Assembly: GCF_003019035.1 (NCBI RefSeq)
Contig: NZ_CP027447.1
DNA: 64,000 nt
Reading direction: 5' to 3' (one strand)
Source of the DNA: Escherichia coli
GTDB lineage: Bacteria > Pseudomonadota > Gammaproteobacteria > Enterobacterales > Enterobacteriaceae
The translations under genes and the position numbers were made by a program. Positions 5,629 through 57,565 of the stretch are shown here, one piece after another (the stretch's first letter is position 1; each line of letters begins with the position of its first letter). The notes under the pieces are model-generated. The model was not told the origin of the DNA. It ran no database searches and worked only from the letters and a program-made list of their open reading frames with translations.

Positions 5629-5699
5629 TTTTTCCTCATAAATTTGATGCCAGGTGAGGTTATGTTGTTGTTTTTATTGCCGGTGCCTAAAACAACAAC

Positions 5700-20447: not shown

Positions 20448-20481
20448 TGCCGGATGCGGCGTGAACGCCTTATCCGGCCTA
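20448..20481. repeat. REP (repetitive extragenic palindromic) element
   Basis: gccggatgcggcgtgaacgccttatccggcctac, canonical E. coli REP consensus. Confidence 0.8.
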
Positions 20482-20506
20482 CGGGGCGGTGCGAATGCAG
20501 GCGTCG

Positions 20507-26502: not shown

Positions 26503-26576
26503 TAAAACATCAAATGCGCAGGTTCAAACTGCGCATTTGATTTATACAAAATTTAGTATAATCTAAGGATGGAGTA

Positions 26577-26915
26577 ATGAGAAAAAAGCTGGCTTTTCTT
26601 GATACCAGTCTTGACGATTTACGCGCATTTCCAGAATCGTCTCGACAGGAAATTGGCTATCAACTCGACAGGTTCCAACAAGGGTTAAACCCATACGACT
26701 GGAAACCTTTTTCAACTATCGGCCCTGGTGTGCGAGAGATTCGTACTCGCGATGCTGATGGGATCTATCGCGTCATGTATATCGCAAAATTTGAAGAAGC
26801 GGTTTACGTATTGCATTGTTTTCAAAAGAAAACACAGACTACCAGTCAATCGGATGTTGATTTAGCCAAACGACGCTATAAAGAACTTGTTCAGGAGCGG
26901 AAAAATGAAAATTGA
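26577..26915 (+). CDS. Type II toxin, RelE/ParE-fold, HigB-2/Gp49-like ('addiction module killer protein' family)
   Basis: 112-aa ORF with RBS aaggatgga; sequence pattern …IRTRDADGIYRVMYIAKFEEAVYVLHCFQKKTQ… typical of Gp49/HigB-like toxins; followed by an overlapping XRE antitoxin gene. Confidence 0.7.
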   Translation: MRKKLAFLDTSLDDLRAFPESSRQEIGYQLDRFQQGLNPYDWKPFSTIGPGVREIRTRDADGIYRVMYIAKFEEAVYVLHCFQKKTQTTSQSDVDLAKRRYKELVQERKNEN

Positions 26916-27195
26916 AACCTTTGATAGTGTGTGGGATGCGGTGAGTGACACCCCTGAACAAGCGGAAAATATGCGGATCCGTGCCGAACTTGTAACGATC
27001 ATTAATAACTGGATTGAACAACAAGGGTTTAGCCAGGCCCAGGCAGCGTCTGCTTTAGGGGTCACTCAACCTCGCATATCTGAACTTGCCAGAGGTAAGA
27101 TCCAGATCTTTAGTATCGATAAATTGATCACCATGATGGCTCATGCAGGATTGCATATTCAACGTATTGAAATTCAATATCCACATGCTGCTTAG
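26905..27195 (+). CDS. Type II antitoxin, XRE-family HTH ('addiction module antidote protein')
   Basis: 96-aa ORF MKIETFDSVWDAV… with HTH LGVTQPRISELARGK; RBS aggagcgg; overlaps toxin gene by 11 nt. Confidence 0.7.
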   Translation: MKIETFDSVWDAVSDTPEQAENMRIRAELVTIINNWIEQQGFSQAQAASALGVTQPRISELARGKIQIFSIDKLITMMAHAGLHIQRIEIQYPHAA

Positions 27196-27206
27196 TGCTA
27201 TAAATA

Positions 27207-27235
27207 CAGATGGCGACAAATTGACGCCGCCATCT
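27207..27235. terminator. 9-bp perfect inverted repeat between the TA operon and the convergent asmA; possible bidirectional terminator
   Basis: cagatggcg (12-nt loop) cgccatctg; no strong U-tract. Confidence 0.35.
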
Positions 27236-27247
27236 GCATAACTTGTC

Positions 27248-29101
27248 TTACATCTTCTCCAGCAACTTCTTCACATCTTTGCCATTGCGGGAATCTTTAT
27301 TCCGCTCGGCCCAGTCATTCAGGCGACGTTTCGCTTCGTCCTGTAGATGTTTGCGCAGTAACTGATCCACTTGCAGGCTGTAATTGAGTTGCTGCCAGTT
27401 GCCATAAACCCGCAGCGGTACTGGCGTTTCTTTGAGGAAATCAATCAGTTTGCTTTCTCCGTTCCAGCCACCAATCACACGAATGTCAAACTGGGTGTCG
27501 CAGGTTTGATCTGCCAGATTCAACATGCCTTCCCCTGTCAGCGCCAGCACTGGCGATTGACCTTGCATGTCGTTTAACGTCACGACGCCATCCTTCAACG
27601 TCAAATCGGTGGTAAAGCGGTCAAGACGCGTTACGTTATCGAAGTTTTCAGCGGCCTTCACATCACCACCATTACGTTCTACCGCTTGCTGAATCATCTG
27701 CTGGAAGTTCATCCCTTCCATGCGTGTGTCGGTCATTTCGACATGTGCCTGTCCTTGCCAGTTGTGGCGGAATGCGTCGGCATCTATGTCAGCACCGGAG
27801 AAATCACCAGCCAGTGACATCTTTCCAGTCAACGAAATCGGATAGTTAAACGCCTTCAGAATGGTGCCAATCTCAACGTTTTCCAGCCGTGGCTGGAAGT
27901 TTATCCGCGGATTTATTGATGTCGCGTCCAGCGTGCCCGGCAGCGAAACCTGTCCACCGTTAAGCTTGCCCTGCAGTTGAGTAATTTCCAGCAAACCCGA
28001 CTTGTTGGTCATTTGCGTGGAAACATCTGTAAAATTCATTCCGCGCCAGCGCACGTTACTGGCCTGCAACAAAATATCAGCCGTAAAGCCTTGCAATCCC
28101 TGATAGGCCGGTTCATCAATACGCGAAGAAATGACCGGGCGCGGCAACGTGGATTGGCTCTGCCCTTGCTGCGCGGCACCGTTTTCACCGTTCGCTGTTT
28201 CTTTAAGCGGGATGAGGTTGTCAAGATTCAGTTGCGGGAATTGCAGTCTCAGCTGCCATTCCGGTTTCTCTGTCAGCGTGACCTGTGCTTGCCCGCTCAG
28301 CGTACTGTCATTGGCGGTCAAACTAATTTGGTTAAATGAAAGGCGTTTATGTGACTCCTGCCACTGGGCCTGGAAACTCCCCTGCCCCTGAATACCTTGT
28401 TTTGGTAAATCTGCACCCTGCAACTGCCAGTTAATTTGTTCAATAGCCGCCGTTAAATCATGCGGATAATCAGAAGCATCTACCGTACCGTTAAGGGATA
28501 TCGTGAGGTCGCGCTGATCGCGATTAACCCGCCCGGAGAACTCAAATGAGCCACGATGTTGGGGATCTTGTTCCATTTGCAGGCGGATATTGCGGATTGT
28601 CACCTGCTCGTCATCTTCATGCTGGAACACCAGCACGCTGTCCGCCATCTTAAGACTGGATATATCAAACGACCATCCGCGATCGTCTGACAGATCCGGC
28701 AAGGTATTGTCGCGCGGTGCAACCGGAGCGTCTTCACTGCGCACCGCTTCCGTCTGCGGCGTCAGTTGGATCACTGCCCCTTTTAGCATCACCTGCTTAA
28801 CGCTCAGTTGATGACTCAGTAGTGGTAAAAGCGCCACGTCCAGACGCATGTTGTCGGCGCGAACCAGTGGCTGGCTCGCGCCCTGGGCGGTGAGAGACAT
28901 TCGCCCGGAGAGGATACTAAGCTGCGGCCAGACGTGCCAACGCAGTGGCCCGTCGAGCTGCAATTGATAACCGCTACGTGCAGCAACTTGCTTGACCATA
29001 TAGTCGCGGAAATCATTCGGATTCACCAGCAACACTAACGCAGATAACCCGGCCACCAGCACGACCAGGAGTATCATCAGCGTCGTCAGAAATCGTCTCA
29101 T
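27248..29101 (-). CDS. asmA: Outer-membrane assembly protein AsmA
   Basis: 617-aa ORF with N-terminal TM anchor MRRFLTTLMILLVVLVAGLSALVLLV. Confidence 0.95.
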   Translation of the reverse strand: MRRFLTTLMILLVVLVAGLSALVLLVNPNDFRDYMVKQVAARSGYQLQLDGPLRWHVWPQLSILSGRMSLTAQGASQPLVRADNMRLDVALLPLLSHQLSVKQVMLKGAVIQLTPQTEAVRSEDAPVAPRDNTLPDLSDDRGWSFDISSLKMADSVLVFQHEDDEQVTIRNIRLQMEQDPQHRGSFEFSGRVNRDQRDLTISLNGTVDASDYPHDLTAAIEQINWQLQGADLPKQGIQGQGSFQAQWQESHKRLSFNQISLTANDSTLSGQAQVTLTEKPEWQLRLQFPQLNLDNLIPLKETANGENGAAQQGQSQSTLPRPVISSRIDEPAYQGLQGFTADILLQASNVRWRGMNFTDVSTQMTNKSGLLEITQLQGKLNGGQVSLPGTLDATSINPRINFQPRLENVEIGTILKAFNYPISLTGKMSLAGDFSGADIDADAFRHNWQGQAHVEMTDTRMEGMNFQQMIQQAVERNGGDVKAAENFDNVTRLDRFTTDLTLKDGVVTLNDMQGQSPVLALTGEGMLNLADQTCDTQFDIRVIGGWNGESKLIDFLKETPVPLRVYGNWQQLNYSLQVDQLLRKHLQDEAKRRLNDWAERNKDSRNGKDVKKLLEKM

Positions 29102-29122
29102 GGTATCCTCAATGGGCCTGAA

Positions 29123-29704
29123 TTAGTCTTTATCGATTCGGCTGGCTACCGCGCCCTGCTGGTTGCGATATTTCGCATCTTCACGGCGGTTGTAAGGTCG
29201 CGCCGCCGGGCCGGAAAGCGGCTCAAAGCTCAGCGCACCAATTAACATGCCCGGACGCAGCGCCAGCGGCAGCTTACCGGAGTTGTAGAACTCCAGCACA
29301 ATGCAGCCAGACCAGCCCGGATCGATACGGTGCGCGGTGACGTGCACCATCAGCCCCAGACGCGCCAGTGAAGAACGCCCGTCCAGCCAGCCCACCAGAT
29401 CGGCTGGCAGCGTCACCGACTCCAGCGTCACCGCCAGCGCCAGCTCTCCTGGGTGAAGATAGAACGCCTCGCTTTCATCGAGAACGATCTCATCGCTCAT
29501 CACGCGGTCAAGCGCGGCGCTCACTTCATCTTTGGGACCGCTCAGATCGATAAACGCTGCCGTGTGACCACGGAAGGTACGAAATTTATTGCCCAGGCGC
29601 ACATCCACCGTCGCGCCGTTAATACGCTCCACTGGCGGACGTGGGTTGATCGACAAACGGCCTTCATCAAGCCAGGCTTCAATATCTCGGTCACACAGAC
29701 GCAT
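29123..29704 (-). CDS. dcd: dCTP deaminase
   Basis: 193-aa [26 protein letters not shown]…. Confidence 0.95.
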
Positions 29705-29795
29705 GGCATTTTCTCCTTTCGCGCATCACTCCCTTAACGCCAATTACGTCAAGGGCATACCAGGTTATCACTGAACGGTACACAATTTATCAAGC

Positions 29796-30437
29796 TTATT
29801 CAAAGAACTGACTTATTTTCGCTTTCAATATATCGATGGCGATGCGGTTTTTCCCGCCGCGCGGCACGATAATGTCCGCATATTGTTTAGAAGGCTCAAT
29901 GAATTGCAGGAACATCGGACGCACGGTTTTTTGATATTGCGCCATCACTGAATCCATTGAACGCCCACGCTCGTTAACGTCACGCTTAATGCGGCGCATC
30001 AGGCAGATATCCAGCGGGGTATCAACGAAAATGGAGAAGTTAAGTTCGTCACGCAAACGCGCATCTGTCAGCAACAAAATGCCTTCGAGAATGATGACCT
30101 TCTTCGGCTCAACCGTCACCGTTTCTTTCATACGCGTATGTTCAACATAGCTGTAAACCGGCAGGTCAATTGCCGAGCCGCGTTTCAACGCTTGTAAATG
30201 CTCAAGCAGCAGGCTGTGATCCATCGCGCTGGGATGGTCGTAGTTGGTCTTAACGCGTTCTTCCATCGACAGATGGCTTTGATCTTTGTAATAGCAGTCT
30301 TCGGGAATTACGCCGATGTGTTCATCACCGACTTGCTCACGTAATTCACGATAAAGGGTACTGGCAATAAGACTCTTGCCGGAAGCCGATGCGCCAGCGA
30401 TACCGATAATGACGCACTGATGAGACTGATCAGTCAT
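29796..30437 (-). CDS. udk: Uridine/cytidine kinase
   Basis: Start at [22 protein letters not shown] (P-loop); ORF-track N-terminal extension rejected. Confidence 0.95.
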
Positions 30438-30754
30438 ATATTTAGCGACCTGATTAACCTGGATGTTAGGAAGGGGGCGACGAAGCGCCAAACGCGGCAA
30501 TTATAGGGATTTCATCCGCCTGATACCAGTCGAATAGCGTTGCCGCGCGCTCAGAGTTAATTGTTGACGAAGAATTCCCGGTGGCAAATTACGTTGATCA
30601 GTTTTATACAAGGTAAAAATTGTTATACGCAGTTGCGCAAATTATCCGCCTTTACGTCACTTTATGAGCAATTCGCATATAAAATGTAAAACTTTTGTAC
30701 TAGCATAAACACAGAAACGAATACTGGCGACCTGGCCTTGCGGATAAAGCGGTA

Positions 30755-33700
30755 ATGAGCAAACAATCACAGCATGTATTAATTGCCCTGCCCCACCCGC
30801 TGCTTCACCTGGTCAGTTTAGGTTTAGTCTCGTTTATCTTCACCCTTTTCTCACTTGAGCTTTCGCAGTTTGGCACCCAACTCGCCCCACTGTGGTTCCC
30901 GACGTCCATCATGATGGTGGCGTTTTATCGCCATGCCGGGCGCATGTGGCCGGGGATTGCGCTGAGCTGCTCGCTGGGAAATATCGCCGCATCCATCCTG
31001 CTTTTTTCCACCAGCTCGCTGAACATGACCTGGACGACCATCAATATTGTTGAAGCCGTGGTCGGGGCAGTGCTACTGCGTAAATTGCTGCCGTGGTATA
31101 ACCCATTGCAAAATCTGGCTGACTGGCTGCGTCTGGCACTCGGCAGCGCCATTGTTCCACCTCTGTTAGGGGGTGTTCTGGTTATCCTGCTGACGCCCGG
31201 AGACGATCCTCTCAGGGCATTTTTGATATGGGTACTGTCAGAATCCATCGGCGCACTGGCACTGGTGCCGCTGGGATTGTTATTTAAACCACACTATCTG
31301 CTGCGCCATCGCAACCCACGGTTGCTTTTTGAGTCGCTGCTCACGTTAGCCATCACACTGACGTTAAGCTGGCTTTCGATGCTGTATCTGCCGTGGCCTT
31401 TTACTTTCATTATTGTGCTGTTGATGTGGAGCGCCGTGCGCCTGCCACGAATGGAAGCCTTTTTGATCTTCCTTACCACGGTGATGATGGTGTCACTGAT
31501 GATGGCCGCGGATCCCTCCCTGCTTGCTACGCCGCGTACATACCTGATGAGCCATATGCCGTGGCTACCGTTTTTGCTGATCCTGCTGCCCGCCAACATC
31601 ATGACCATGGTGATGTATGCCTTTCGTGCGGAACGCAAACACATTTCCGAAAGCGAAACCCGTTTTCGTAACGCCATGGAATATTCCGCCATCGGCATGG
31701 CATTAGTGGGCACCGAGGGGCAATGGCTGCAATCCAACAAAGCACTCTGCCAGTTTCTCGGTTACAGTCAGGAAGAGCTGCGCGGACTCACCTTTCAGCA
31801 ACTGACCTGGCCGGAGGATCTCAATAAAGATCTGCAACAGGTTGAAAAGCTGATCAGCGGTGAAATAAACACCTATTCAATGGAAAAACGCTACTACAAC
31901 CGCAATGGCGATGTTGTCTGGGCGTTGCTTGCCGTCTCACTGGTGCGCCACACCGATGGTACGCCGCTCTATTTTATCGCTCAGATTGAAGACATTAACG
32001 AGCTAAAACGCACCGAACAGGTGAATCAGCAACTGATGGAGCGCATCACGCTGGCTAACGAAGCGGGCGGGATTGGCATCTGGGAGTGGGAGCTAAAGCC
32101 GAATATTTTTAGCTGGGATAAGCGGATGTTCGAGCTGTATGAAATTCCTCCGCATATCAAACCGAACTGGCAGGTGTGGTACGAGTGCGTGCTGCCGGAA
32201 GATCGCCAGCACGCCGAAAAAGTGATTCGCGATTCATTGCAATCACGCTCGCCCTTTAAGCTGGAATTTCGCATTGCCGTGAAAGATGGCATCCGCCATA
32301 TCCGCGCCCTCGCCAACCGGGTACTGAATAAAGAAGGCGAAGTCGAACGTCTGCTCGGCATTAATATGGATATGACCGAGGTTAAACAGCTTAACGAGGC
32401 ATTGTTTCAGGAAAAAGAGCGCCTGCACATTACGCTTGATTCCATCGGTGAAGCCGTGGTCTGTATTGATATGGCGATGAAAATTACCTTTATGAATCCG
32501 GTGGCGGAGAAGATGAGCGGCTGGACGCAGGAAGAAGCGTTAGGTGTTCCGCTCCTGACGGTGTTGCATATTACTTTTGGCGACAACGGACCATTAATGG
32601 AGAACATTTACAGTGCCGACACCTCACGTTCCGCGATTGAACAAGATGTGGTGTTGCACTGCCGAAGCGGCGGCAGCTACGACGTGCATTACAGTATTAC
32701 GCCGTTAAGTACTCTGGACGGCAGCAATATTGGTTCGGTTCTGGTGATTCAGGACGTCACCGAATCGCGCAAAATGCTGCGCCAGCTGAGCTACAGCGCC
32801 TCCCATGATGCACTGACGCATCTCGCCAATCGCGCCAGTTTTGAGAAGCAACTACGCATCCTGCTGCAAACGGTAAACAGTACACATCAGCGACATGCAC
32901 TGGTGTTTATCGATCTTGATCGCTTTAAAGCGGTGAATGACAGCGCCGGGCACGCCGCTGGCGACGCTTTACTGCGCGAACTGGCGTCATTGATGCTGAG
33001 TATGCTGCGCTCCAGCGACGTGCTGGCGCGACTCGGTGGCGATGAATTTGGTCTGCTGCTGCCAGATTGTAATGTCGAAAGTGCGCGTTTTATCGCTACA
33101 CGCATTATCAGCGCCGTGAATGACTATCACTTTATCTGGGAAGGACGAGTACATCGGGTAGGTGCCAGTGCCGGGATTACCTTGATTGATGACAACAATC
33201 ATCAGGCGGCTGAAGTGATGTCGCAGGCCGATATCGCCTGTTATGCCTCCAAAAATGGTGGACGGGGCCGGGTGACGGTTTACGAACCGCAGCAAGCTGC
33301 CACAAATAGCGAACGGGCGGTGATGTCGCTTGATGAACAGTGGCGGATGATTAAAGAGAATCAGTTGATGATGATCGCCCACGGTGTCGCTTCGCCGCGG
33401 ATCCCGCAAGCGCGTAATTTGTGGCTGATTTCACTTAAGCTCTGGAGTTGCGAAGGCGAGATTATTGATGAACAAACATTTCGTCGTAGCTTCAGCGATC
33501 CGGCACTTAGCCATGCTCTTGACCGACGGGTATTCCACGATTTTTTCCAGCAGACCGCAAAAGCGATTGCCAGTAAAGGCTTAAGCATCGCCCTCCCCCT
33601 TTCCGTTGCCGGTTTGAGTAGCACCACGCTGGTGAATGAACTAATTGAGCAGCTGGAAAATAGCCCTCTACCACCACGGTTATTACATCTGATTATTCCG

Positions 33701-34072
33701 GCAGACGCGATTTTCGATCACGCAGAAAGCGTGCAAAAACTGCGGCTGGCGGGATGTCGGATCGTATTCAGTCAGGTGGGCCGCGATCTGCAAATCTTCA
33801 ACTCGCTGAAAGCAAATATGGCAGATTACCTGCTACTTGATGGTGAGTTATGCGCCAACGTGCAGGGAAATTTGATGGATGAGATGCTGATTACGATCAT
33901 TCAGGGGCACGCTCAGCGGCTCGGGATGAAGACCATCGCCGGGCCAGTAGTTTTACCCCTGGTGATGGATACGCTTTCTGGCATCGGCGTCGATCTGATT
34001 TATGGCGATGTGATTGCCGATGCCCAACCGCTGGATTTGCTGGTGAATAGCAGTTATTTCGCGATTAACTGA
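30755..34072 (+). CDS. dgcE: Diguanylate cyclase DgcE (YegE): MASE1 membrane domain, PAS repeats, GGDEF (RLGGDEFGLL) and degenerate EAL
   Basis: 1105-aa ORF; GGDEF motif visible in translation. Confidence 0.93.
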   Translation: MSKQSQHVLIALPHPLLHLVSLGLVSFIFTLFSLELSQFGTQLAPLWFPTSIMMVAFYRHAGRMWPGIALSCSLGNIAASILLFSTSSLNMTWTTINIVEAVVGAVLLRKLLPWYNPLQNLADWLRLALGSAIVPPLLGGVLVILLTPGDDPLRAFLIWVLSESIGALALVPLGLLFKPHYLLRHRNPRLLFESLLTLAITLTLSWLSMLYLPWPFTFIIVLLMWSAVRLPRMEAFLIFLTTVMMVSLMMAADPSLLATPRTYLMSHMPWLPFLLILLPANIMTMVMYAFRAERKHISESETRFRNAMEYSAIGMALVGTEGQWLQSNKALCQFLGYSQEELRGLTFQQLTWPEDLNKDLQQVEKLISGEINTYSMEKRYYNRNGDVVWALLAVSLVRHTDGTPLYFIAQIEDINELKRTEQVNQQLMERITLANEAGGIGIWEWELKPNIFSWDKRMFELYEIPPHIKPNWQVWYECVLPEDRQHAEKVIRDSLQSRSPFKLEFRIAVKDGIRHIRALANRVLNKEGEVERLLGINMDMTEVKQLNEALFQEKERLHITLDSIGEAVVCIDMAMKITFMNPVAEKMSGWTQEEALGVPLLTVLHITFGDNGPLMENIYSADTSRSAIEQDVVLHCRSGGSYDVHYSITPLSTLDGSNIGSVLVIQDVTESRKMLRQLSYSASHDALTHLANRASFEKQLRILLQTVNSTHQRHALVFIDLDRFKAVNDSAGHAAGDALLRELASLMLSMLRSSDVLARLGGDEFGLLLPDCNVESARFIATRIISAVNDYHFIWEGRVHRVGASAGITLIDDNNHQAAEVMSQADIACYASKNGGRGRVTVYEPQQAATNSERAVMSLDEQWRMIKENQLMMIAHGVASPRIPQARNLWLISLKLWSCEGEIIDEQTFRRSFSDPALSHALDRRVFHDFFQQTAKAIASKGLSIALPLSVAGLSSTTLVNELIEQLENSPLPPRLLHLIIPADAIFDHAESVQKLRLAGCRIVFSQVGRDLQIFNSLKANMADYLLLDGELCANVQGNLMDEMLITIIQGHAQRLGMKTIAGPVVLPLVMDTLSGIGVDLIYGDVIADAQPLDLLVNSSYFAIN

Positions 34073-34103
34073 GGCGTGCTTCCCCATCGCCTGATGCGAC
34101 GTA

Positions 34104-34967
34104 TCAGGCCTCCAATTCGTCCGTTCCGTCTGGTTGCCAGCCTTCCGTATACCAGATATGCAACAGCGCATAAGAACACCAGGGCTTCCAGCGTTCGGCA
34201 TAACGGCGGATTTGTGCCGGTGTCATTCCCGGAAATCGCTGTTTAATCAGATAATCATCCGGCAGGAAAACATCTTTCGCCTGCCAGCCACGTAAGGCGA
34301 AATAATTCGCCGTCCAGCGCCCGATACCCGGAAAAGTTTGCAGCGTTTTCATCGCTTGTTCTACGTCGCCCGGTATTGTCATTGGTAAGGTGCCCTCCAG
34401 CGCCGCATTTGCCAGATGAATCAGTGCCTCTGCCCGTTTCAACGGCATACCTAACGCTTTTAATGCCTGCGGGTCGGCTGCAGCCAGCCGCTGAGGCGTG
34501 GGGAAGCAGACATAATCCGGAAAATCATCCAGCCGTTCGCCATAAAGCTGTGCCACTCTGGCGGTCAATTTTGCCGCCATCGCCACGCTCACCAGTTGGC
34601 CTAAAATCGCCCGCACGCCCTGCTCAAAAGCATCAACACTGCCGGGTAAACGCAATCCGGGCCGCGCCGCGCCTAACTTGCCCAACGCACCGTTAACAAT
34701 CTGCGGGTTACATTGCAGATCAAACAGGCGGCTCATTTTCGCCAGACACTCTGCGGCAACAGGTTCTAAACCTGCACTTAAATTTATGTGCAGAGTATGG
34801 CGGGCTATATCCGGAATAGCAGTCACCACGCCGCGATATTCGCCCATCGCCAGACTACGGGCATAATAATCGTCAGCGACCGTTTCCACACCGTTCACCG
34901 CACGGGCGGCGAGAAATCCCAACATCCACGACCAGTCATACGGCGGCTGCCAGTTCAGGGTATACAT
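34104..34967 (-). CDS. alkA: 3-methyladenine DNA glycosylase II
   Basis: 287-aa ORF MYTLNWQPPYDWSWMLGFLAARAV…; C-terminus (…WQPDGTDELEA) is a few residues longer than the K-12 protein as I remember it. Confidence 0.9.
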   Translation of the reverse strand: MYTLNWQPPYDWSWMLGFLAARAVNGVETVADDYYARSLAMGEYRGVVTAIPDIARHTLHINLSAGLEPVAAECLAKMSRLFDLQCNPQIVNGALGKLGAARPGLRLPGSVDAFEQGVRAILGQLVSVAMAAKLTARVAQLYGERLDDFPDYVCFPTPQRLAAADPQALKALGMPLKRAEALIHLANAALEGTLPMTIPGDVEQAMKTLQTFPGIGRWTANYFALRGWQAKDVFLPDDYLIKQRFPGMTPAQIRRYAERWKPWCSYALLHIWYTEGWQPDGTDELEA

Positions 34968-35100
34968 CGCATCTCCTTGTTAATCCGCTTTCAGCATAAA
35001 CGTTATTCAGACGCTACGCTTTGCTTTCATATTCCGGTTGTCGCGACGGCAACATTTCGCTAAAGTCACGCCCCTTCTTCACCGGCATGGGGATTATTTC

Positions 35101-36453
35101 GTGTTTATTGGTTTTGATTACGGTACAGCAAACTGTTCAGTGGCGGTCATGCGTGACGGTAAACCGCATTTGCTAAAAATGGAAAACGACAGCACGCTGC
35201 TGCCTTCAATGCTTTGCGCGCCAACGCGTGAAGCGGTAAGCGAATGGCTGTACCGCCATCATGATGTTCCGGCAGACGACAATGAAACGCAGGCGCTGTT
35301 ACGTCGGGCGATTCGTTATAACCGCGAAGAAGATATCGATGTCACGGCGAAAAGCGTGCAGTTCGGTCTTTCTTCACTGGCACAATACATTGATGATCCG
35401 GAAGAAGTGTGGTTTGTGAAATCACCAAAATCGTTCCTCGGTGCCAGCGGCTTAAAACCGCAGCAGGTAGCGCTGTTTGAGGATCTGGTCTGCGCAATGA
35501 TGCTGCACATTCGCCAACAGGCGCAGGCGCAGCTGCCGGATGCGATTACTCAGGCGGTGATTGGTCGTCCGATCAACTTCCAGGGGCTGGGTGGCGATGA
35601 AGCAAACACCCAGGCGCAAGGGATTCTGGAACGCGCGGCAAAGCGTGCCGGGTTTAAGGACGTGGTATTCCAGTACGAGCCGGTCGCGGCTGGGCTGGAT
35701 TACGAAGCCACCTTGCAGGAAGAAAAACGGGTGCTGGTGGTGGATATCGGCGGTGGTACGACTGACTGCTCATTGCTGCTGATGGGGCCGCAGTGGCGTT
35801 CGCGTCTCGATCGTGAAGCCAGCCTGCTGGGTCATAGTGGTTGCCGTATTGGTGGTAACGATCTGGATATCGCGCTGGCGTTTAAAAACCTGATGCCGTT
35901 ACTGGGCATGGGGGGCGAAACCGAAAAAGGCATCGCCCTGCCGATTCTGCCGTGGTGGAATGCGGTTGCCATCAACGACGTACCTGCGCAAAGTGATTTC
36001 TACAGTAGTGCCAACGGTCGTCTGCTTAACGATCTGGTACGCGATGCCCGCGAACCGGAAAAAGTGGCCCTGTTACAGAAAGTCTGGCGTCAGCGTTTAA
36101 GCTATCGCCTGGTACGTAGCGCAGAAGAGAGCAAAATTGCGCTTTCAAGCGTAGCAGAAACCCGCGCCTCACTGCCGTTTATCAGCGATGAACTGGCTAC
36201 GCTGATTAGCCAGCAAGGGCTGGAAAGCGCCCTCAACCAGCCACTGGCGCGGATTCTGGAACAGGTGCAACTGGCGCTGGATAACGCCCAGGAAAAACCG
36301 GATGTCATCTATCTGACTGGTGGTAGCGCCCGATCGCCGCTGATTAAAAAAGCGCTGGCAGAACAGTTGCCGGGCATTCCGATTGCAGGCGGCGATGACT
36401 TTGGCTCCGTCACCGCCGGGCTGGCACGCTGGGCGGAAGTGGTGTTTCGTTAA
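35101..36453 (+). CDS. yegD: Hsp70-family (actin-like ATPase) protein YegD; GTG start
   Basis: VFIGFDYGTANCSVAV… DnaK-like phosphate-1 motif; GTG at 35101 gives the 450-aa product. Confidence 0.88.
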   Translation: MFIGFDYGTANCSVAVMRDGKPHLLKMENDSTLLPSMLCAPTREAVSEWLYRHHDVPADDNETQALLRRAIRYNREEDIDVTAKSVQFGLSSLAQYIDDPEEVWFVKSPKSFLGASGLKPQQVALFEDLVCAMMLHIRQQAQAQLPDAITQAVIGRPINFQGLGGDEANTQAQGILERAAKRAGFKDVVFQYEPVAAGLDYEATLQEEKRVLVVDIGGGTTDCSLLLMGPQWRSRLDREASLLGHSGCRIGGNDLDIALAFKNLMPLLGMGGETEKGIALPILPWWNAVAINDVPAQSDFYSSANGRLLNDLVRDAREPEKVALLQKVWRQRLSYRLVRSAEESKIALSSVAETRASLPFISDELATLISQQGLESALNQPLARILEQVQLALDNAQEKPDVIYLTGGSARSPLIKKALAEQLPGIPIAGGDDFGSVTAGLARWAEVVFR

Positions 36454-36465
36454 TTGAAAAATGGC

Positions 36466-38412
36466 TCAGCAGCGGCTTAAATCAGCCTGCGCCTGAGCCA
36501 GTTTTTCTGCCGCCTGACGTAGCGGCTCCATCAACGGCATGGTCCGTGCTGGAGCATGAAGGCGGAATCGCTGCAACTCTGTCGCACCGACAGTCAACGC
36601 CGATTCCAGCCGATGTCGTTTGGCGGCCATTTTAGTCAGTACCGCTTGTCTGTCTGCTGGCGTTACCGCTTCATTCGGCCTGAACACAAAACGGCGTTCG
36701 CAACTCGCTTTCCAGTCGATAACCGCCTGTGTCAGATGATCACCAAACCCTTTCACTTGCTTAACGCCACGACGGGTAACATCTGCGGCGGTTTCAATAC
36801 CAAAAGACCGTAACGCCGCTTTACGCGCTGGGCCTACGCCGGGAATAGAGGCAGCATCGATAAAAAATCCCTCCAGAAACTTCTGCTTCTGCCGTTCCCT
36901 TGCGTTGTCCTGAAGTGCTGCCAGAGCGCGTTTCTCCTCTTCCGGTAACCCAAGAATTTCGTCCTTCATTTTTTCGAGCATCGTCCGTTTGGCTATAAAA
37001 CCTTCCTGCCCGCCCAACTGTTGGATCTGGCTGACTAAATGGTCATAGTCCATTTTCGCGCGATTAAACGCCTCACGGCGTTGCTGGATTTCTGCTTTGT
37101 ACGCTTTGCTTGTCAGGCTGCCAATAATCCAGATAGCCGACAGCACAGGAACCAAAATAATATAACGTGGTTCTGTCTGAAGGCCGCAAAGCAACAGCGA
37201 TAACGCTGACAGTGCGATCTCAATCAGAATGATGTATTCACGCCGTAACAGGCCTAAAGGAAGCGGCCTGCCAGTCGGTTGGAAATGATCGGGTAATGGC
37301 AGTTGCAATGCTGGCGGTGCTACTGACGCCATCACCATCGCCCAGACTTTCGCCAGCACAAAATCACCGCTGGTGGTAATGACCTCTTCGCCGAGATCAA
37401 TAAAATAGATAACGCCTTGATTATCCAGAGCACACCACGGGCAGTCAGCCAAATGACCGGGATAAACATGCATTGCCGAAACGGTACATTTCTTTAACTG
37501 TTGGCGTAGTAAATCAAGTGCCGCTACCCACGCTTTTGCCGTCGGACGCCCGGTTGCCACGCCACTTTCCGTGAATGCCTGCTGAAACATGGCTTCAACA
37601 TCGCCCGGTAACATCGACAGCGGAATAGATCGTGGCGGCGGTTTTAAACCACGTCGCTGATTATCTGACGCGTAGGCATAACGGAAATGGGCAATATCCG
37701 TCTCCAGTGCATTACCCGCATCAGAGACAAGCGGTACACCGGAATAAGGATGCCGCCCACCAAACAAGACGTGAAAAATCAGCAACGCAAGGCCAAAATT
37801 ATCGTGATTCGCGGTGCGTTCAAAGCCAACAAATGACGACAAGGTTTGCAGCTCTGGCGACGTAAAATGCGACACGCCCACTTCGCATAAATGCAGCGTT
37901 CCATTGGCGTTAATCTGAAAGGAGTCGCTATCAATCAACACCACTTTGCTGTCACGGCCTACCATAAAGCTGTTCTGGTTTACGTCACCCACGACGTGCC
38001 CGTGCTCGTGAACCGTAGCAAAAGATGAAGCAATATTGCGCGCAACATAGAGGAGAAAATCCCACGCACAATGAGGGTAACTCTGACGACGATGTGCCGG
38101 GCTATAGATCATATGAATCGGTTCTTTACCTGAAACCTTCGGCATCATAAAACCGATAACCTTTCCGCCTCGTCCACCGTGAAGCGTTGCCTGCGGCCAG
38201 GCGACATAATTCAACAACTGCGCGTCAGCTGTCGCAGCCATAAAGGCAAGTTTGTCCTGTTTTAAGGCGGGTGGCGGCGTGTGATAAATCTTGGCGACGC
38301 TATCGGCAAACTCCTCGATATCATAAACCGCACCTTCACCGCCTTTGCCCAGTTCACGGCCGAGAGTGGTCAATTCACCTGTCGATGTAAATACTTTTAT
38401 ATTTGTCTTCAT
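36466..38412 (-). CDS. yegI: Atypical Ser/Thr protein kinase YegI (N-terminal kinase-like domain, central TM segments, C-terminal helix-hairpin-helix-like region)
   Basis: 648-aa ORF; Gly-rich loop GKGGEGAVY, catalytic-loop-like HVVGDVNQNS, TM stretch …ILIEIALSALSLLLCGL…, C-terminal …IPGVGPARKAALRSFGIETAADV…. Confidence 0.88.
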   Translation of the reverse strand: MKTNIKVFTSTGELTTLGRELGKGGEGAVYDIEEFADSVAKIYHTPPPALKQDKLAFMAATADAQLLNYVAWPQATLHGGRGGKVIGFMMPKVSGKEPIHMIYSPAHRRQSYPHCAWDFLLYVARNIASSFATVHEHGHVVGDVNQNSFMVGRDSKVVLIDSDSFQINANGTLHLCEVGVSHFTSPELQTLSSFVGFERTANHDNFGLALLIFHVLFGGRHPYSGVPLVSDAGNALETDIAHFRYAYASDNQRRGLKPPPRSIPLSMLPGDVEAMFQQAFTESGVATGRPTAKAWVAALDLLRQQLKKCTVSAMHVYPGHLADCPWCALDNQGVIYFIDLGEEVITTSGDFVLAKVWAMVMASVAPPALQLPLPDHFQPTGRPLPLGLLRREYIILIEIALSALSLLLCGLQTEPRYIILVPVLSAIWIIGSLTSKAYKAEIQQRREAFNRAKMDYDHLVSQIQQLGGQEGFIAKRTMLEKMKDEILGLPEEEKRALAALQDNARERQKQKFLEGFFIDAASIPGVGPARKAALRSFGIETAADVTRRGVKQVKGFGDHLTQAVIDWKASCERRFVFRPNEAVTPADRQAVLTKMAAKRHRLESALTVGATELQRFRLHAPARTMPLMEPLRQAAEKLAQAQADLSRC

Positions 38413-38612
38413 AATGTTTCAAGGGCAGTCATATTATATTTCAATGAATAATAACACTTCCCATTATAATTATTTCTATATTGGAAGAGTCCAACTCAAG
38501 AATAAAAATGATAATGCAATTTCATCAGGATACAATTCAATTCCAACCTGATAATGATTCACTTCCACAGGTTTTTTGCTAACTTTTACTACACAGGGAT
38601 TCTGGAGAAAAA

Positions 38613-39074
38613 ATGAAAAAGATATTACTTATGTTGAGTCTGCTATTTTTTACTACCGCAAGCTATTGTGAGATTTCGGATACGTTAGTGACAGGAGGTT
38701 ATGATAAAAAGGCGATGTCTGACGCGATTAAACATGCGCGGAAAGAAACCGATCAATTCATCGAAGTTATGAATAAAAAAGATGCTGATACTTTCGCGGT
38801 CAAAGCCCCGATAACCGATCGCGGAGAAACCGAGCATTTCTGGCTCACGGATGTCACTTATTCTAACGGCATGTTTATTGGTATAATAAGCAATGACCCT
38901 GGTATTGTTACAAACGTAGAATATGGCCAGGAGTGGAAAATCAAGAAAGAAGATATTTCAGACTGGATGTATACGCGCGGGGATAAAATTTACGGTGGTT
39001 ATACCATTGATCCTTTATTGGTCACCTATCCAAAAGAAGAAGCCGACGAGCTAAGAGCAAAATTAGTTCGCTAG
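38613..39074 (+). CDS. yegJ: Small secreted protein YegJ (signal peptide)
   Basis: 153-aa ORF MKKILLMLSLLFFTTASYC…; RBS ggag 7 nt upstream; AT-rich. Confidence 0.85.
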   Translation: MKKILLMLSLLFFTTASYCEISDTLVTGGYDKKAMSDAIKHARKETDQFIEVMNKKDADTFAVKAPITDRGETEHFWLTDVTYSNGMFIGIISNDPGIVTNVEYGQEWKIKKEDISDWMYTRGDKIYGGYTIDPLLVTYPKEEADELRAKLVR

Positions 39075-39138
39075 CCAGCCATTATATTGATTGCTTAAAC
39101 TGGCGGTTGAACCGTTGTATTCAACCGCCATGCGATGT

Positions 39139-39900
39139 TCATTCTGTCCACATAGCCAGTGCTAACGTTTTATCATCATCGGTACGCTCGTTTACCGCTG
39201 GGCTGGACAAAAACTGCTTTAACAATTCAGGTAATAAATCGAGTTGTTCCTGCGTTGCTGACGCCAGTCCATTGAAAAACGGGGTAAAGAAAGGCACATG
39301 CGGAGAATTATCCAGCATATTTAACGCCAGTCTCTGAATACCATCCGTAAATGCTGCAACTCTATGCGCACGCTCAGTGCTGGTGAAAGTTTCCAGTCTG
39401 AAAACGGCATCTTCATCGGTAATGAAATGCGTCATGTTGGCATATTCACCCACCATCGGCGTGAGAGGCAATTGCAGACCGTGACCCAAATCTACCACCA
39501 CGCCGCCATCGCCAATCTGCATAATCAAGGTGCCGTCAGGCGATGAAATCAGTCCCAGAAATGTGCAGGCAAAATCGCGAACCGCTAATTCTTTGGCTTC
39601 CGCCTCGGCAAAAAGTCGCTGACGAACGGTCAGCACAATATCCGTTGCGAGGACATCATTAAGCCCCAATTCCCCGCCCTGCACTTTTTGCATCATATAA
39701 GCCATCGCTTCATTGACGGCAAGCGTCGCACCTTCGCCACCCTGCGAAACGCTGCCTGCGCCATCAGCGACAAATACCGTCAATAATGGCTGCTGGTCTT
39801 CTAGCCAGGCAACCTGCATCTGGCAGGCATCCTGGCAAGGCAAGTCCGCGCTGATGTGCGACGTTCCAACGGTTGATGCATAGACCAGACGCCAGCTCAC
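39139..39900 (-). CDS. yegK: PP2C-family Ser/Thr protein phosphatase YegK (PphC)
   Basis: 253-aa ORF with PP2C-like DGAGS motif; overlaps yegL by 4 nt. Confidence 0.88.
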
Positions 39901-40556
39901 ACTGACGTCCAGCCTTTTGGCGCTTCCAGCACAACTTCCGTTCCCGGCGTGGAGCGGGAAACCGAACGCAGCGAACTGGATAACCAGCTAAATAGTTCGC
40001 GGAATTGTAATCCTTGAAGAGGCAAAGGCTGACGAACGCTGATTTGGGCCAGCGTCTTCATATCCGCCCCCTGAACACCGATGGAAAAGAAGGCAAACTT
40101 CTTATCTTCTTCCCCCTGAAACACCTTGTTGGCAGCAGCCTGCCACTCATCGGTTGGTGCGCCATCGGTAATCAGGAAAATCCACGGACGATAATAGGAA
40201 ATACCATTGGCGCGATACTCACGTTTGCGCTCCTCAACCATATTCAGGGCTTTGGTAATGGCGGCGCCCATTGGTGTATCCCCATGGGCAAACAGGATGG
40301 GCGGGAAAAAATTAGCGGCGCTGGTAAAGGGTTGTTCCACATGCACTGGGCCGAACGTCACAATACCGAGTTCCACTCTTTTTAAGGCCAGCGGGTCGGC
40401 AAGCAGCTCATCGCGAAAGGTAACCAATCCGGCGTTAAGTTCATTAATGGGTCTACCGTTCATAGAACCAGAAACATCCAGCAGCAAAATGCAGGGGCAA
40501 CGTGGTTCCGGGTTACTGGCAAAATCGCTGGTGGCAAACGTGATTTGTTCGCTCAT
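39897..40556 (-). CDS. yegL: von Willebrand factor A (vWA) domain protein YegL
   Basis: 219-aa ORF; MIDAS motif [11 protein letters not shown]. Confidence 0.88.
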
Positions 40557-40736
40557 AAGAAATCCTTTCTTAGAGAATTATTGAGGTCCGGTATCATACC
40601 GATTGCAATAATGAAATAAGAGCAAACGAAGAAACTTTCAGAATTAGGCCCGGCGGCGCAGAAAATTTTGCTATTCGCCTCGCAAGAACGGAGAGCCGTC
40701 GATTGACACTAAGGGCGGAGTGACATAATTTCAGGA

Positions 40737-40886
40737 GTGAGGGTTAGGGAGAGGTTTCCCCCTCCCCCTGGTGTTCTTAGTAAGCCTGGAAGCTAATCAC
40801 TAAGAGTATCACCAGTATGATGACGTGCTTCATCATAACCCTTTCCTTATTAAAAGCCCTCTTCTCCGGGAGAGGGTTTCCCGTTT
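40737..40886 (+). ncRNA. sibA: Sib antisense sRNA (type I antitoxin), copy 1; ends approximate
   Basis: -35 ttgaca (40703-40708), 17-bp spacer, -10 taattt (40726-40731); intrinsic terminator gccctcttctccgggagagggtttcccgtttc ending ~40886; fully antisense to ibs ORF. Confidence 0.6.
40777..40836 (-). CDS. ibsA: Type I toxin IbsA-like, 19 aa (MMKHVIILVILLVISFQAY)
   Basis: Reverse-complement translation; SD aaggaaag upstream; differs from remembered K-12 IbsA by one residue (P17Q). Confidence 0.8.
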   Translation of the reverse strand: MMKHVIILVILLVISFQAY

Positions 40887-41071
40887 CAGCGTCCCGCTGA
40901 AATCGTCGGCTTACCTCCTTTCGCCCTGAATGCAGTCTATCGCTAACGCGTGAACAAAATAGTTTCCTCTGTGATTATTCCGTAACGACTCGCAAAGAAT
41001 ATTTGCTGGCAGGATCGCAGACTACAAAGCCTGCGGATTGACAATCTTATCGTGAAGGCATAATTTCAGGA

Positions 41072-41214
41072 GTGAGGGTAGAGCGGGGTTTCCCCCGCCC
41101 TGGTAGTCTTAGTAAGCGGGGAAGCTTATGACTAAGAGCACCACGATGATGAGTATCTTCATCATGACCCTTTCCTTATTTATGGCCCCTTCCTCGGGAG
41201 GGGCTTTCCCGTTT
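41072..41214 (+). ncRNA. sibB: Sib antisense sRNA, copy 2; ends approximate
   Basis: -35 ttgaca 41038-41043, -10 taattt 41061-41066; terminator hairpin ggcccctcctcgggaggggc + ttcccgtttc (41184-41214). Confidence 0.6.
41109..41165 (-). CDS. ibsB: Type I toxin IbsB-like, 18 aa (MMKILIIVVLLVISFPAY)
   Basis: Reverse-complement translation with SD; hydrophobic Ibs-family peptide. Confidence 0.8.
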   Translation of the reverse strand: MMKILIIVVLLVISFPAY

Positions 41215-41399
41215 CAGCGTCCCGCTGAAATCGTCGGCTTACCTCCTTCTGTCCTGTATGCAGTCTATCGCTGACTTGCGGATAAAATAGTTTCCAATGT
41301 GATTATTGCGTAACGTCTCGCAAAGAATATTTGCTGGCAGGATCGCAGACTGCAAAGCCTGCAGATTGACAATATTATCGTGAAGGCATACTTTCAGGA

Positions 41400-41543
41400 G
41401 TGAGGGTAGAGCGGGGTTTCCCCCGCCCTGGTAGTCTTAGTAAGCCGGGAAGCTTATGACTAAGAGCACCACGATGATGATCCACTTCATCATGACCCTT
41501 TCCTTATTTAAGGCCCCTTCCTCGGGAGGGGCTTTCCCGTTTC
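41400..41543 (+). ncRNA. Sib antisense sRNA, copy 3; ends approximate
   Basis: -35 ttgaca 41366-41371, -10 tacttt 41389-41394; terminator hairpin 41512-41543. Confidence 0.55.
41437..41493 (-). CDS. Type I toxin Ibs-family, third copy, 18 aa (MMKWIIIVVLLVISFPAY)
   Basis: Reverse-complement translation; same frame/SD as copy 2 but with Trp at position 4. Confidence 0.7.
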   Translation of the reverse strand: MMKWIIIVVLLVISFPAY

Positions 41544-41700
41544 AGCGTCCCGCTGAAATCGTCGGCCTACCTCCTTTTGCCCTGAATGCAGTCTATCGCT
41601 AACGCGTAGATAAAATAGTTTCCTGTGTTATTACTGGATGCGTGCTCGCAAATGTGCCCGCCATTCAGACGATTCCCGATAGTGTTTCATAATTCCTCCA

Positions 41701-41719
41701 TTTTTCTCCCTGATTGGCT
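41701..41719 (+). promoter_or_regulatory. BaeR-binding box upstream of mdtA
   Basis: tttttctccctgattggct closely matches the BaeR consensus TTTTTCTCCATDATTGGCT (from memory); about 50 bp upstream of the mdtA start. Confidence 0.65.
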
Positions 41720-41771
41720 GGCTACACTAGTATCATTCCGCGAAACGTTTCAGGAAGAGAAACTCTTAACG

Positions 41772-43019
41772 ATGAAAGGCAGTTATAAATCCCGTTGGGT
41801 AATCGTAATCGTGGTGGTTATCGCCGCCATCGCCGCATTCTGGTTCTGGCAAGGCCGCAATGACTCCCGGAGTGCAGCCCCAGGGGCGACGAAACAAGCG
41901 CAGCAATCGCCAGCGGGTGGTCGCCGTGGTATGCGTTCCGGCCCATTAGCCCCGGTTCAGGCGGCGACCGCCGTAGAACAGGCTGTTCCGCGTTACCTCA
42001 CCGGGCTTGGCACCATTACCGCCGCTAATACTGTTACGGTGCGCAGCCGCGTGGACGGTCAACTGATGGCGTTGCATTTCCAGGAAGGCCAGCAGGTCAA
42101 AGCTGGCGATTTATTGGCAGAAATTGACCCCAGCCAGTTCAAAGTTGCATTAGCACAAGCCCAGGGCCAACTGGCAAAAGATAAAGCCACGCTTGCCAAC
42201 GCCCGCCGTGACCTGGCGCGTTATCAACAACTGGCAAAAACCAATCTCGTATCTCGTCAGGAACTGGATGCCCAACAAGCGCTGGTCAGTGAAACCGAAG
42301 GCACCATTAAGGCTGATGAAGCAAGCGTCGCCAGCGCACAGCTGCAACTCGACTGGAGCCGCATCACCGCACCAGTCGATGGTCGCGTTGGTCTCAAGCA
42401 GGTTGATGTTGGTAACCAAATCTCCAGTGGTGATACCACCGGGATTGTGGTGATCACCCAGACGCATCCTATCGATTTGCTCTTTACCCTGCCGGAAAGC
42501 GATATCGCTACCGTTGTGCAGGCGCAAAAAGCCGGAAAACCGCTGGTTGTTGAAGCCTGGGATCGCACCAACTCGAAGAAATTAAGTGAAGGCACGCTGT
42601 TAAGTCTCGATAACCAAATCGATGCCACTACCGGTACGATTAAAGTGAAAGCACGCTTTAATAATCAGGATGATGCACTGTTTCCCAATCAGTTTGTTAA
42701 CGCGCGTATGTTAGTCGACACCGAACAAAACGCCGTGGTGATCCCCACCGCCGCCCTGCAAATGGGCAATGAAGGCCATTTTGTCTGGGTGCTGAATAGC
42801 GAAAACAAGGTCAGCAAACATCTGGTGACGCCGGGCATTCAGGACAGTCAGAAAGTGGTGATCCGCGCAGGTATTTCTGCAGGCGACCGCGTAGTGACGG
42901 ATGGCATTGATCGTCTGACCGAAGGGGCGAAAGTGGAAGTGGTTGAAGCTCAAAGCGCCACCACTTCGGAAGAGAAAGCCACCAGCCGCGAATACGCGAA
43001 AAAAGGAGCGCGCTCCTGA
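41772..43019 (+). CDS. mdtA: Multidrug efflux RND membrane-fusion protein MdtA
   Basis: Start at [21 protein letters not shown] (415 aa); ORF-track upstream extension rejected. Confidence 0.93.
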
Positions 43020-52754: not shown

Positions 52755-52765
52755 TATTTTTACCT

Positions 52766-52795
52766 GCCGGAGAAGGCATTCACGCCGCATCCGGC
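52766..52795. repeat. REP element (single unit)
   Basis: gccggagaaggcattcacgccgcatccggc. Confidence 0.6.
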
Positions 52796-57531: not shown

Positions 57532-57565
57532 GCCGGATGCGGTGTAAACACCTTATCCGGCATAC
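57532..57565. repeat. REP element between convergent yegS and gatR
   Basis: gccggatgcggtgtaaacaccttatccggcatac. Confidence 0.8.

Follow-up and report, generated by a model that had tools for sequence, protein, structure and literature searches.

Gilson, Bachellier and Hofnung reportedly found that REPs and BIMEs are polymorphic between Escherichia coli strains.

A BIME consists of two REPs in inverse orientation and a linker (PMC3479197, PMC3333891), and a full REP folds into an imperfect hairpin that has an upper stem and is interrupted by a mismatch or bulge (PMC3479197). Binding and cleavage by RAYT require the GTAG bases and the stem bulge (Messing et al., PMC3479197). REPs are by definition usually extragenic (PMC12306157), and E. 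coli strains differ in the BIME content of a given locus (Ton-Hoang et al. 2012, PMC3333891). According to Liang, Rudd and Deutscher (2015), as relayed in PMC12306157, ribosomes stall at REPs that lie no more than 15 nt from a stop codon, and translation is reduced.

Here we analyse the junction between dgcE and alkA in a stretch of 64,000 nucleotides from E. coli (contig NZ_CP027447.1; hereafter, the window). Strain polymorphism of BIMEs is already known (PMC3333891), as are AlkA proteins of 285 and 287 residues in RefSeq. What is specific to this locus is that a BIME deletion runs into a gene and that REP-derived bases encode the last residues of AlkA, a DNA-repair enzyme, in approximately 43% of genomes.

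The alkA gene of the window and its product

Both genes were taken from the list of open reading frames, with support for dgcE from the RefSeq annotation of the identical locus in strain SCU-301:

30755..34072, plus strand: dgcE coding sequence (diguanylate cyclase)
34070-34072, plus strand: dgcE stop codon, TGA
34104..34967, minus strand: alkA coding sequence (DNA-3-methyladenine glycosylase 2), 287 aa, tail WQPDGTDELEA

The two genes are convergent and separated by a gap of 31 nt. The alkA frame comprises 287 codons, closing with ...HIWYTEGWQPDGTDELEA*, and RefSeq labels the identical gene of SCU-301 as alkA (WP_089583109.1). The deduced product is 96% identical to PDB AlkA over residues 1-280 (phmmer against 1diz_A, E = 6e-188, over the same residues), and it belongs to the AlkA/HhH-GPD family by full-length homology as well as by its catalytic and pocket residues: the catalytic D238, together with W218, Y222, W272 and Y273, occupies invariant alignment columns, which the window protein shares with K-12 AlkA.

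The end of the protein differs from that of the K-12 enzyme. AlkA from K-12 MG1655 (b2068) is 282 aa long and ends in ...WQPDEA*, as do the PDB chains, also of 282 aa (1diz, 1mpg and others, eleven or more entries), whose match to the window protein stops at D280. Relative to these chains (1MPG, 1DIZ), the window protein has GT instead of EA at positions 281-282, followed by the additional residues DELEA; it also carries R264C, at a nearly invariant Arg. The first-pass annotation, made from the sequence of the window, had read this same WQPDGTDELEA tail, given WQPDEA as the K-12 end and placed the site between convergent dgcE and alkA; all of this holds, and the K-12 protein does not have the C-terminus of the window protein.

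The palindrome at the end of alkA is a truncated REP

The 3′ end of alkA overlaps the palindrome GCCTGAT-GCGACGT-ATCAGGC at 34089-34109, whose arms (34089-34098 and 34100-34109) are 90% complementary. The stop codon, TGA, is the complement of 34104-34106 and the last Ala codon is that of 34107-34109, so that both lie inside the right arm, and codons 281-285 adjoin the palindrome; the extra codons and stop are therefore within or beside it, as had been proposed. Inverted repeat, fold energies and alignment define the following elements:

34089..34113, plus strand: remnant of a z-type REP1, with a stem of 7-9 bp at 34089-34109
34110-34113, plus strand: degenerate REP1 tail, CTCC (CTAC in intact REPs); alkA codons 286-287 and the stop lie within the remnant

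The left arm matches the REP motif GCCKGATGCGRCG at 13 of 13 positions. This motif occurs six times in the window, where 0.69 occurrences would be expected by chance; two of these occurrences seem fortuitous. Full-length y-type REPs are found at 20449, 52783 and 57532. The remnant matches the arms of the z-type consensus, GCCTGATGCGACG ... TATCAGGC, and its right arm, TATCAGGC, does not differ from that of the complete REP1 found in genomes with a K-12-type alkA end (the long form). Against this full z-type REP1, GCCTGATGCGACGCTAACGCGTCTTATCAGGCCTAC, it aligns base for base in K-12, O157:H7, E. albertii, E. whittamii and others, with the sole exception of an 11-nt gap. The remnant thus belongs to a multi-copy family and is positionally orthologous to a z-type REP, while the truncated form itself is single-copy (median of one place per genome). 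The first-pass annotation had called the palindrome a degenerate REP: its REP identity is confirmed, but it has not diverged, being instead a z-type REP truncated by the loss of the 11-nt hairpin tip.

In other respects the element departs from a REP. With 21 nt (25 nt including the tail), it is shorter than the full imperfect hairpin of approximately 35-40 nt. The window has CTCC (GGAG) at 34110-34113, where the 285-aa alleles keep CTAC (GTAG). It is not extragenic, because the alkA stop and codons 286-287 occupy its right arm and tail (34104-34112). Nor does the window contain the two inverted REPs and linker that define a BIME, which are present in the K-12-type allele; it retains one truncated REP and the linker, REP2 being absent. 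The element is therefore a REP/BIME remnant, and neither a BIME nor a functional REP. Without GTAG, bulge and upper stem, we infer that it would no longer be a RAYT substrate, and it presumably has no activity as a mobile or recombinogenic REP.

Folding of the plus-strand remnant gave a hairpin of -13.6 kcal/mol (z = -3.9 versus shuffled sequences). In the sense of the alkA mRNA, folding gave a weak hairpin of -8.7 to -10.4 kcal/mol (a 7-bp stem at -8.7), not significant against shuffles (z = -1.2). For comparison, values were about -20 kcal/mol for full REPs and -41 to -49 kcal/mol for the entire K-12 spacer, an approximately five-fold gap in hairpin strength between alleles. Two other identities for the hairpin were rejected: an intrinsic terminator, since it is not followed by a T-run and the scan returned no terminator-like site, and a known RNA family, for which Rfam gave no match. 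The K-12 record contains no REP features at alkA-dgcE, nor at around 5565-5669, where one would be expected, so that their absence is uninformative.

Two deletions and a lost stop codon separate the window from K-12

A 401-nt query across the junction matched 5,407 of 5,426 complete E. coli genomes, in which it spanned 401, 402, 455, 461, 463/464 or 472 nt depending on the genome; the dgcE-alkA spacer thus exists in at least seven length variants. We aligned 3′-end representatives of every length class, in alkA sense, comparing long with short alleles.

In the long form (K-12, O157:H7, strain B-like and others), alkA ends in CCA GAC GAA GCA TGA (P D E A stop). This is followed by an 8-nt spacer, CGTTGGTC, by REP2, GCCGGATGCGGTGCGAGCGCCTTATCCGGCCTGG, by the linker GGAATGAGCGATTT and by REP1 in reverse, GTAGGCCTGATAAGACGCGTTAGCGTCGCATCAGGC, with a further 16 nt or so before the dgcE stop. 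The linker between REP1 and REP2 measures 14 nt in the K-12-type BIME. The window allele is 62 nt shorter, and the alignment accounts for the difference as follows:

34127..34128: junction of a 51-nt deletion, from the alignment; a 35-mer across the junction occurs in 2,274 of 5,426 genomes
34101..34102: junction of an 11-nt deletion, from the alignment of short and long forms; the REP1 hairpin tip, CTAACGCGTCT (plus strand), is gone
34113..34127, minus strand: alkA codons 281-285 (G T D E L), from the BIME linker, aligned to the long-form linker GGAATGAGCGATTTG
34112: stop-loss substitution, A to C on the plus strand, changing alkA codon 286 from TAG to GAG (Glu)

In alkA sense, the 51 nt lost comprise GAAGCATGA (E281, A282 and stop), the spacer CGTTGGTC and REP2, GCCGGATGCGGTGCGAGCGCCTTATCCGGCCTGG. 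The 11 nt lost, CTAACGCGTCT, formed the upper stem and loop of REP1, as well as part of its bulge. Because the alkA stop disappeared within the 51-nt deletion, alkA reads on into the former linker: in the short form, CCA GAC (P279, D280) is fused directly to GGA ACG GAC GAA TTG TAG GCC TGA TAC G... Codons 281-285 also align to the linker variants of two divergent Escherichia, L057 and E69. Most short alleles encode WQPDGTDEL* (285 aa), stopping at a TAG formed by the final three bases of GTAG, the tetranucleotide at the REP1 foot.

The window allele goes one step further. Read against the 285-aa alleles (L003, L071, L072 and L076-L080), its codon 286 is GAG and not TAG, and translation therefore continues through GCC (Ala) to the TGA within the REP1 stem, GCC-TGA-T, to give 287 aa. 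By this comparison, the final E and A of the tail reflect a separate point mutation, beyond the deletion. Alignment of alkA 3′ ends across strains, the check that the first-pass annotation had proposed, thus bears out its suggestion that indel variation at a REP site altered the protein tail: long and short BIME alleles differ by indels, here of 51 and 11 nt. Its description of the tail as a few residues longer than that of K-12 is correct in length but not as a plain addition, since seven new codons replace the last two of alkA.

Frequency and diversity of alkA 3′ ends

We counted alleles in the 5,426 complete E. coli genomes with diagnostic 35- to 40-mers, designed so that every 28-nt megablast seed spans the variant base or junction. 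Such probes miss alleles with nearby SNPs and left approximately 290 genomes unclassified, within which limits about 2,771 genomes (51%) have the K-12-type end and about 2,274 (43%; junction-only 35-mer) the short junction encoding GT. A further 68-69 genomes have the EADEL junction. The TAG version was found in 1,669 genomes with a stop-centred 40-mer, a probe that undercounts the short class because SNP variants, such as L078 (GTDKL) and L080 (loop T to C), escape the 28-nt seed.

The GAG read-through was present in only nine of the 5,426 genomes: two assemblies of ABU 83972, SCU-301, EcPF14, ChlosBP-23-1, CU39ES-1, GF131, ECAMP047 and AR_0077. The exact GAG 40-mer occurs in eight independent complete genomes, and the ninth, AR_0077 (L073), carries a second GAG read-through on a different flank haplotype. 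It is thus the GAG step that makes the window form rare, with nine genomes as compared with about 2,274 for the short junction. RefSeq annotates alkA genes of 864 nt in SCU-301, ABU 83972, ChlosBP-23-1, GF131 and AR_0077.

Other tails include WQPDGTDKL* (L078), WQPDEADEL* (L075) and WQPDEAEL* (L074). Among further length changes, O157:H7 has a 9-nt deletion in the REP2 arm, ABW_A33 a 9-nt tandem duplication of GATTTGTAG and DFK.1 a 3-nt loop deletion; the dgcE-alkA spacer is an indel hot spot. By strain name, the short allele occurs in APEC IMT5155, O103:H2 and O89m:H9, and the long form in K-12, O157:H7 and O111:H8. For each form, these serotypes apparently span several phylogroups.

The short allele is derived

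One scan of GTDB species representatives yielded 61 alkA loci. In E. albertii, E. whittamii, Escherichia sp. E1V33, E69 and SCPM-O-B-8794, the last two being divergent genomes labelled E. coli, alkA stops at codon 283; beyond it lie REP2, either intact or with a part deleted, then the linker and a complete REP1. The presence of the long form in all five of these other lineages indicates that it predates E. coli and that the short form is derived; in the same direction, a tip-less REP must descend from a full REP. Partial losses of REP2 have arisen independently in O157:H7 (9 nt), E69 (18 nt) and SCPM-O-B-8794 (about 13 nt), which indicates a deletion-prone site.

In short alleles the linker, GGAACGGACGAATTG, differs from that of all long-form E. 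coli examined, GGAATGAGCGATTTG, at 4 of 15 positions, so that a simple, recent deletion from the K-12-type sequence does not account for the short allele. A short-type linker beside an intact REP1 had no match in the 5,426 E. coli genomes, and related linker variants occur in SCPM-O-B-8794 (ACGGACGAATGG) and E69 (GCGAATTG). Judging from these sequences, the short allele probably descends from an old or imported linker variant with an unsampled two-REP precursor. Each of the left-flank haplotypes GGCGTGCTTCCCCATC and GGGAGCGTTTGCCCATT is associated with both short and long forms, a four-gamete pattern that implies either recombination very close to REP1 or recurrent deletion.

The junction sequences, with weak microhomology, suggest that the deletions may have arisen by replication slippage or by hairpin-stimulated deletion at the palindromes. 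The EADEL and GTDEL alleles differ solely in the pentamer kept, GAAGC of the former alkA end in one and GGAAC of the linker in the other. This agrees with a deletion between imperfect direct repeats, GAAGCATGACG and GGAAC-GGACG, that was resolved in alternative ways. RAYT-mediated excision received no support, as the deletion ends do not fall on the cleavage sites between C and T described in PMC3333891.

History of the GAG allele

Across 20 kb, SCU-301 matches the window at every position (100% identity), and other genomes reach no more than about 98.8%. Position-by-position comparison revealed a tract common to other GAG strains:

33980..34751: shared tract of approximately 770 bp, carrying GAG and identical in ABU 83972 and ChlosBP-23-1 except at 34178

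On both sides of this tract, divergence is 1.5-3.5%. The location of GAG on a shared tract suggests that the allele spread by descent or recombination, and not by repeated mutation, although the haplotype of AR_0077 may represent a second, independent origin.

Predicted effects on the protein and on expression

Among 57 Enterobacteriaceae AlkA sequences, conservation is near-absolute from S265 to P279, W272 and Y273 included, and collapses immediately after P279; protein lengths range from 279 to 290 aa. An AlphaFold model of the window AlkA, built with a 46-sequence alignment, had a mean pLDDT of 92.5 and a pTM of 0.90, with pLDDT below 50 at residues 283-287. The extension is therefore most likely a disordered, tolerated appendage in the modelled protein. 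Since the tail past P279 is unconstrained and predicted to be disordered, its change is probably neutral for the enzyme, with a nil or small effect.

As for expression, REP2 of K-12 starts 8 nt past the alkA stop, within the 15 nt reported for ribosome stalling. In the TAG alleles this distance is 0 nt, because the stop abuts the remnant, and the stop of the window is itself part of the stem, so that a terminating ribosome would necessarily melt the weak hairpin that contains it. By analogy with the reported cases, the exchange of a strong REP 8 nt after the stop for a weak, stop-containing hairpin could possibly affect expression. Neither alkA, dgcE nor yegE is mentioned in the supplements of PMC12306157, and a literature search for REPs together with alkA found nothing relevant. 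Extending the analogy, the split between a strong two-REP form (about 51% of genomes) and a weak remnant (about 43%) might set different basal or induced levels of AlkA, through REP-dependent ribosome stalling or mRNA 3′-end stability; we regard this as rather unlikely. If true, it would mean that strains inherit different tolerances of alkylation damage, or different mutagenic costs from an excess of AlkA. Under the same reading, the rare R264C substitution of the SCU-301/GF131 lineage, at a near-invariant Arg, might further impair the enzyme.

Alternative explanations

Palindromes are prone to local assembly errors, and a single base separates 285 from 287 aa, so the longer tail could in principle be a sequencing or assembly error, or a mis-called end of the open reading frame. 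The recurrence of the GAG 40-mer in eight independent genomes and in a ninth on another haplotype, the 2,274 genomes with the short junction and the RefSeq annotation of the 864-nt gene in five GAG genomes effectively refute such an artefact, to which we give almost no credence. The opposite polarity, with an ancestral short form and a K-12-type long form created by insertion or amplification of REP2 together with a new alkA end, would fit the divergent linker of the short form and the absence of a long-form precursor carrying it from the 5,426 genomes. A possible route would be, for example, RAYT-mediated diversification of BIMEs, as TnpA-REP reportedly cuts and recombines BIMEs, making them variable (PMC3333891); moreover, AlkA tails are often longer outside Escherichia (289-290 aa). 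Nevertheless, the five divergent or non-E. coli Escherichia stop at codon 283 before an intact or decayed REP2, the REP1 of short alleles is in a derived state, being 11 nt short of the family consensus, and 17 nt of non-REP sequence conserved in other species, GAAGCATGACGTTGGTC, would need to have been part of the insert. In other genera, the long tails consist of antisense dgcE sequence and are not homologous to GTDEL. An ancestral short form is consequently very improbable.

Somewhat less remote, but still unlikely in our judgement, is that the remodelled 3′ end is functional and was selected, either because the acidic tail (GTDEL or GTDELEA) alters the stability or interactions of AlkA, or because the loss of REP2 modifies expression through REP-mediated ribosome stalling or mRNA 3′-end protection. 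The short allele is frequent, at about 43% of genomes, and occurs on several backgrounds, apparently of several phylogroups going by serotype names. The 8-nt position of the K-12 REP, within the stalling range as relayed in PMC12306157, and the approximately five-fold difference in hairpin strength would also agree with an effect on expression. Conversely, tails differ among short alleles (GTDEL, GTDKL, EADEL, EAEL and GTDELEA) within a region that is unconserved across the family and modelled as disordered, and a high frequency is equally expected of an old neutral allele shuffled by recombination.

A probable decayed BIME in the 3′ end of alkA

Altogether, we consider it very likely that the feature is a decayed BIME that was partly absorbed into the 3′ end of alkA. 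The ancestral layout, as reconstructed from the alignments, can be followed there together with the two deletions, the stop-loss and the shared tract. By this comparison, the ancestor of Escherichia had alkA with 282 codons and TGA, the 8-nt spacer, REP2, the 14-nt linker, an inverted full REP1 and about 16 nt up to the dgcE stop. A common E. coli allele lacks 51 nt (the last two alkA codons, stop, spacer and REP2) as well as the 11-nt REP1 tip, and its alkA runs from D280 directly into the old linker (G-T-D-E-L) and, in most carriers, ends at the TAG of the REP1 GTAG (285 aa). In the lineage of the window (SCU-301, ABU 83972 and a few others), this TAG mutated to GAG, extending translation through GCC to the TGA of the stem (287 aa).

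The AlkA forms of 282, 284, 285 and 287 aa present in RefSeq are accordingly true alleles with a common cause, and not errors. The locus provides a documented case of the decay of a repeat cluster rewriting the C-terminus of a protein, with the GTAG of a REP serving as stop codon in about 40% of E. coli genomes and, as a second step, with even this stop removed in the window lineage. The allele series, comprising a REP 8 nt past the stop, a hairpin abutting the stop and a stop within the stem, could be used on the rule of 15 nt or less. The practical value is modest.

Comparison with known systems

The locus resembles the BIME polymorphism described between strains in having two inverted REPs and a variable linker in an intergenic 3′ region, with a content that varies between strains. 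It is likewise affected by small indels in arms, loop and linker, which here amount to seven length classes, a 9-nt duplication and deletions of 3, 9, 11 and 51 nt. Unlike in the usual polymorphism, a deletion crosses the gene boundary and removes the alkA stop, bases of the linker and REP become coding, and the GTAG of the REP itself supplies the new stop. The remnant also differs from REPs that regulate translation in that its hairpin on the alkA mRNA is weak (-8.7 kcal/mol).

As in other Enterobacteriaceae, alkA and dgcE are convergent and the AlkA tail after P279 is dictated by the downstream DNA. The other genera do not have a REP at this position; there, the 3′ ends of the two genes overlap by 4-36 nt (33 nt in Citrobacter; 36 nt in Enterobacter and Lelliottia; 8 nt in Phytobacter, Kosakonia and Yokenella) and their AlkA tail is the antisense of the dgcE end, whereas Escherichia has a BIME of 79-110 nt and the window a gap of 31 nt. 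From these comparisons, the extreme C-terminus of AlkA is a segment repeatedly redefined by whatever DNA lies downstream. The variation at dgcE-alkA is an ordinary strain polymorphism, probably harmless, and nothing in it suggests a new kind of element or mechanism.

Lineage of the region and a tract shared with other strains

Over window positions 26000–46000, the sequence matches E. coli SCU-301 (NZ_CP051751.1), which came from a rectal swab of a healthy student, at 100% identity. After SCU-301, the closest complete genomes reach only ~97–98.8% identity over this segment, indicating that it belongs to an uncommon lineage for the region. A shorter tract within it is shared with ABU 83972 and ChlosBP-23-1, from which both of its flanks diverge by 1.5–3.5%.

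33980–34751, ~770 bp: shared tract, identical in ABU 83972 and ChlosBP-23-1 except at 34178
34176–34178: AlkA R264C codon, with the SNP at 34178

From these alignments, the tract looks like a product of recombination that bears the stop-loss allele (the TAG to GAG change that lengthens the AlkA tail by two residues).

The R264C substitution in AlkA

Residue 264 of AlkA opens the C-terminal helix (264–273), on which the pocket residues W272 and Y273 sit. Of 57 enterobacterial AlkA sequences, 55 have Arg at this position, and so does ABU 83972. Among 5,426 E. coli genomes, Cys264 occurred only in SCU-301 and GF131. The substitution might harm the enzyme more than the altered tail does.

Other REPs in the window and further changes at the locus

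Three full-length y-type REPs elsewhere in the window have fold energies of -17 to -21 kcal/mol.

20449–20482, plus strand: full-length y-type REP, GCCGGATGCGGCGTGAACGCCTTATCCGGCCTAC-like
52762–52795, minus strand: full-length y-type REP, GCCGGATGCGGCGTGAACGCCTTATCCGGCCTAC-like
57532–57565, plus strand: full-length y-type REP, GCCGGATGCGGCGTGAACGCCTTATCCGGCCTAC-like

In Escherichia sp. MOD1-EC7003 (locus L067, ~1501–1890), alkA is cut off after approximately residue 121 by a deletion ending within REP1, one of the two inverted REPs of the alkA–dgcE BIME (...GVRAICRPDKTR* and then GCGTCGCATCAGGC); this truncation is a further REP-associated deletion at the alkA locus. The junction query matched the bovine E. 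coli strain E89 (match H40, NZ_CP121157.1) on the dgcE side only (query positions 1–152), and the alkA side appears to have been lost or replaced there. The dgcE stop codon is TGA or TAA depending on the strain. In O157:H7 NE92, ABW_A33, AR435, DETEC-P351 and 96_1414B (loci L005, L006, L071, L077 and L080), RefSeq treats dgcE as a pseudogene, owing to a frameshift, an internal stop or a partial gene.

The alkA–dgcE junction in Escherichia and other genera

Loci L068 and L038 lie in sequences labelled Terrisporobacter mayombei and Chryseobacterium sp. 18061. The Terrisporobacter assembly contains a 449-bp contig, at 0.87x coverage, that shares 99% identity with alkA of E. coli and probably reflects contamination. 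On the Chryseobacterium contig, the alkA is of enterobacterial type (70% identity), suggesting that this assembly is mislabelled or mixed.

The comparison of alkA 3' ends across genera drew on outgroup loci L014–L069. No REP lies at this junction in Citrobacter, Enterobacter, Lelliottia, Phytobacter, Kosakonia and Yokenella, where the 3' ends of alkA and dgcE overlap by 4–36 nt; Escherichia species have a 79–110-nt BIME between the two genes.
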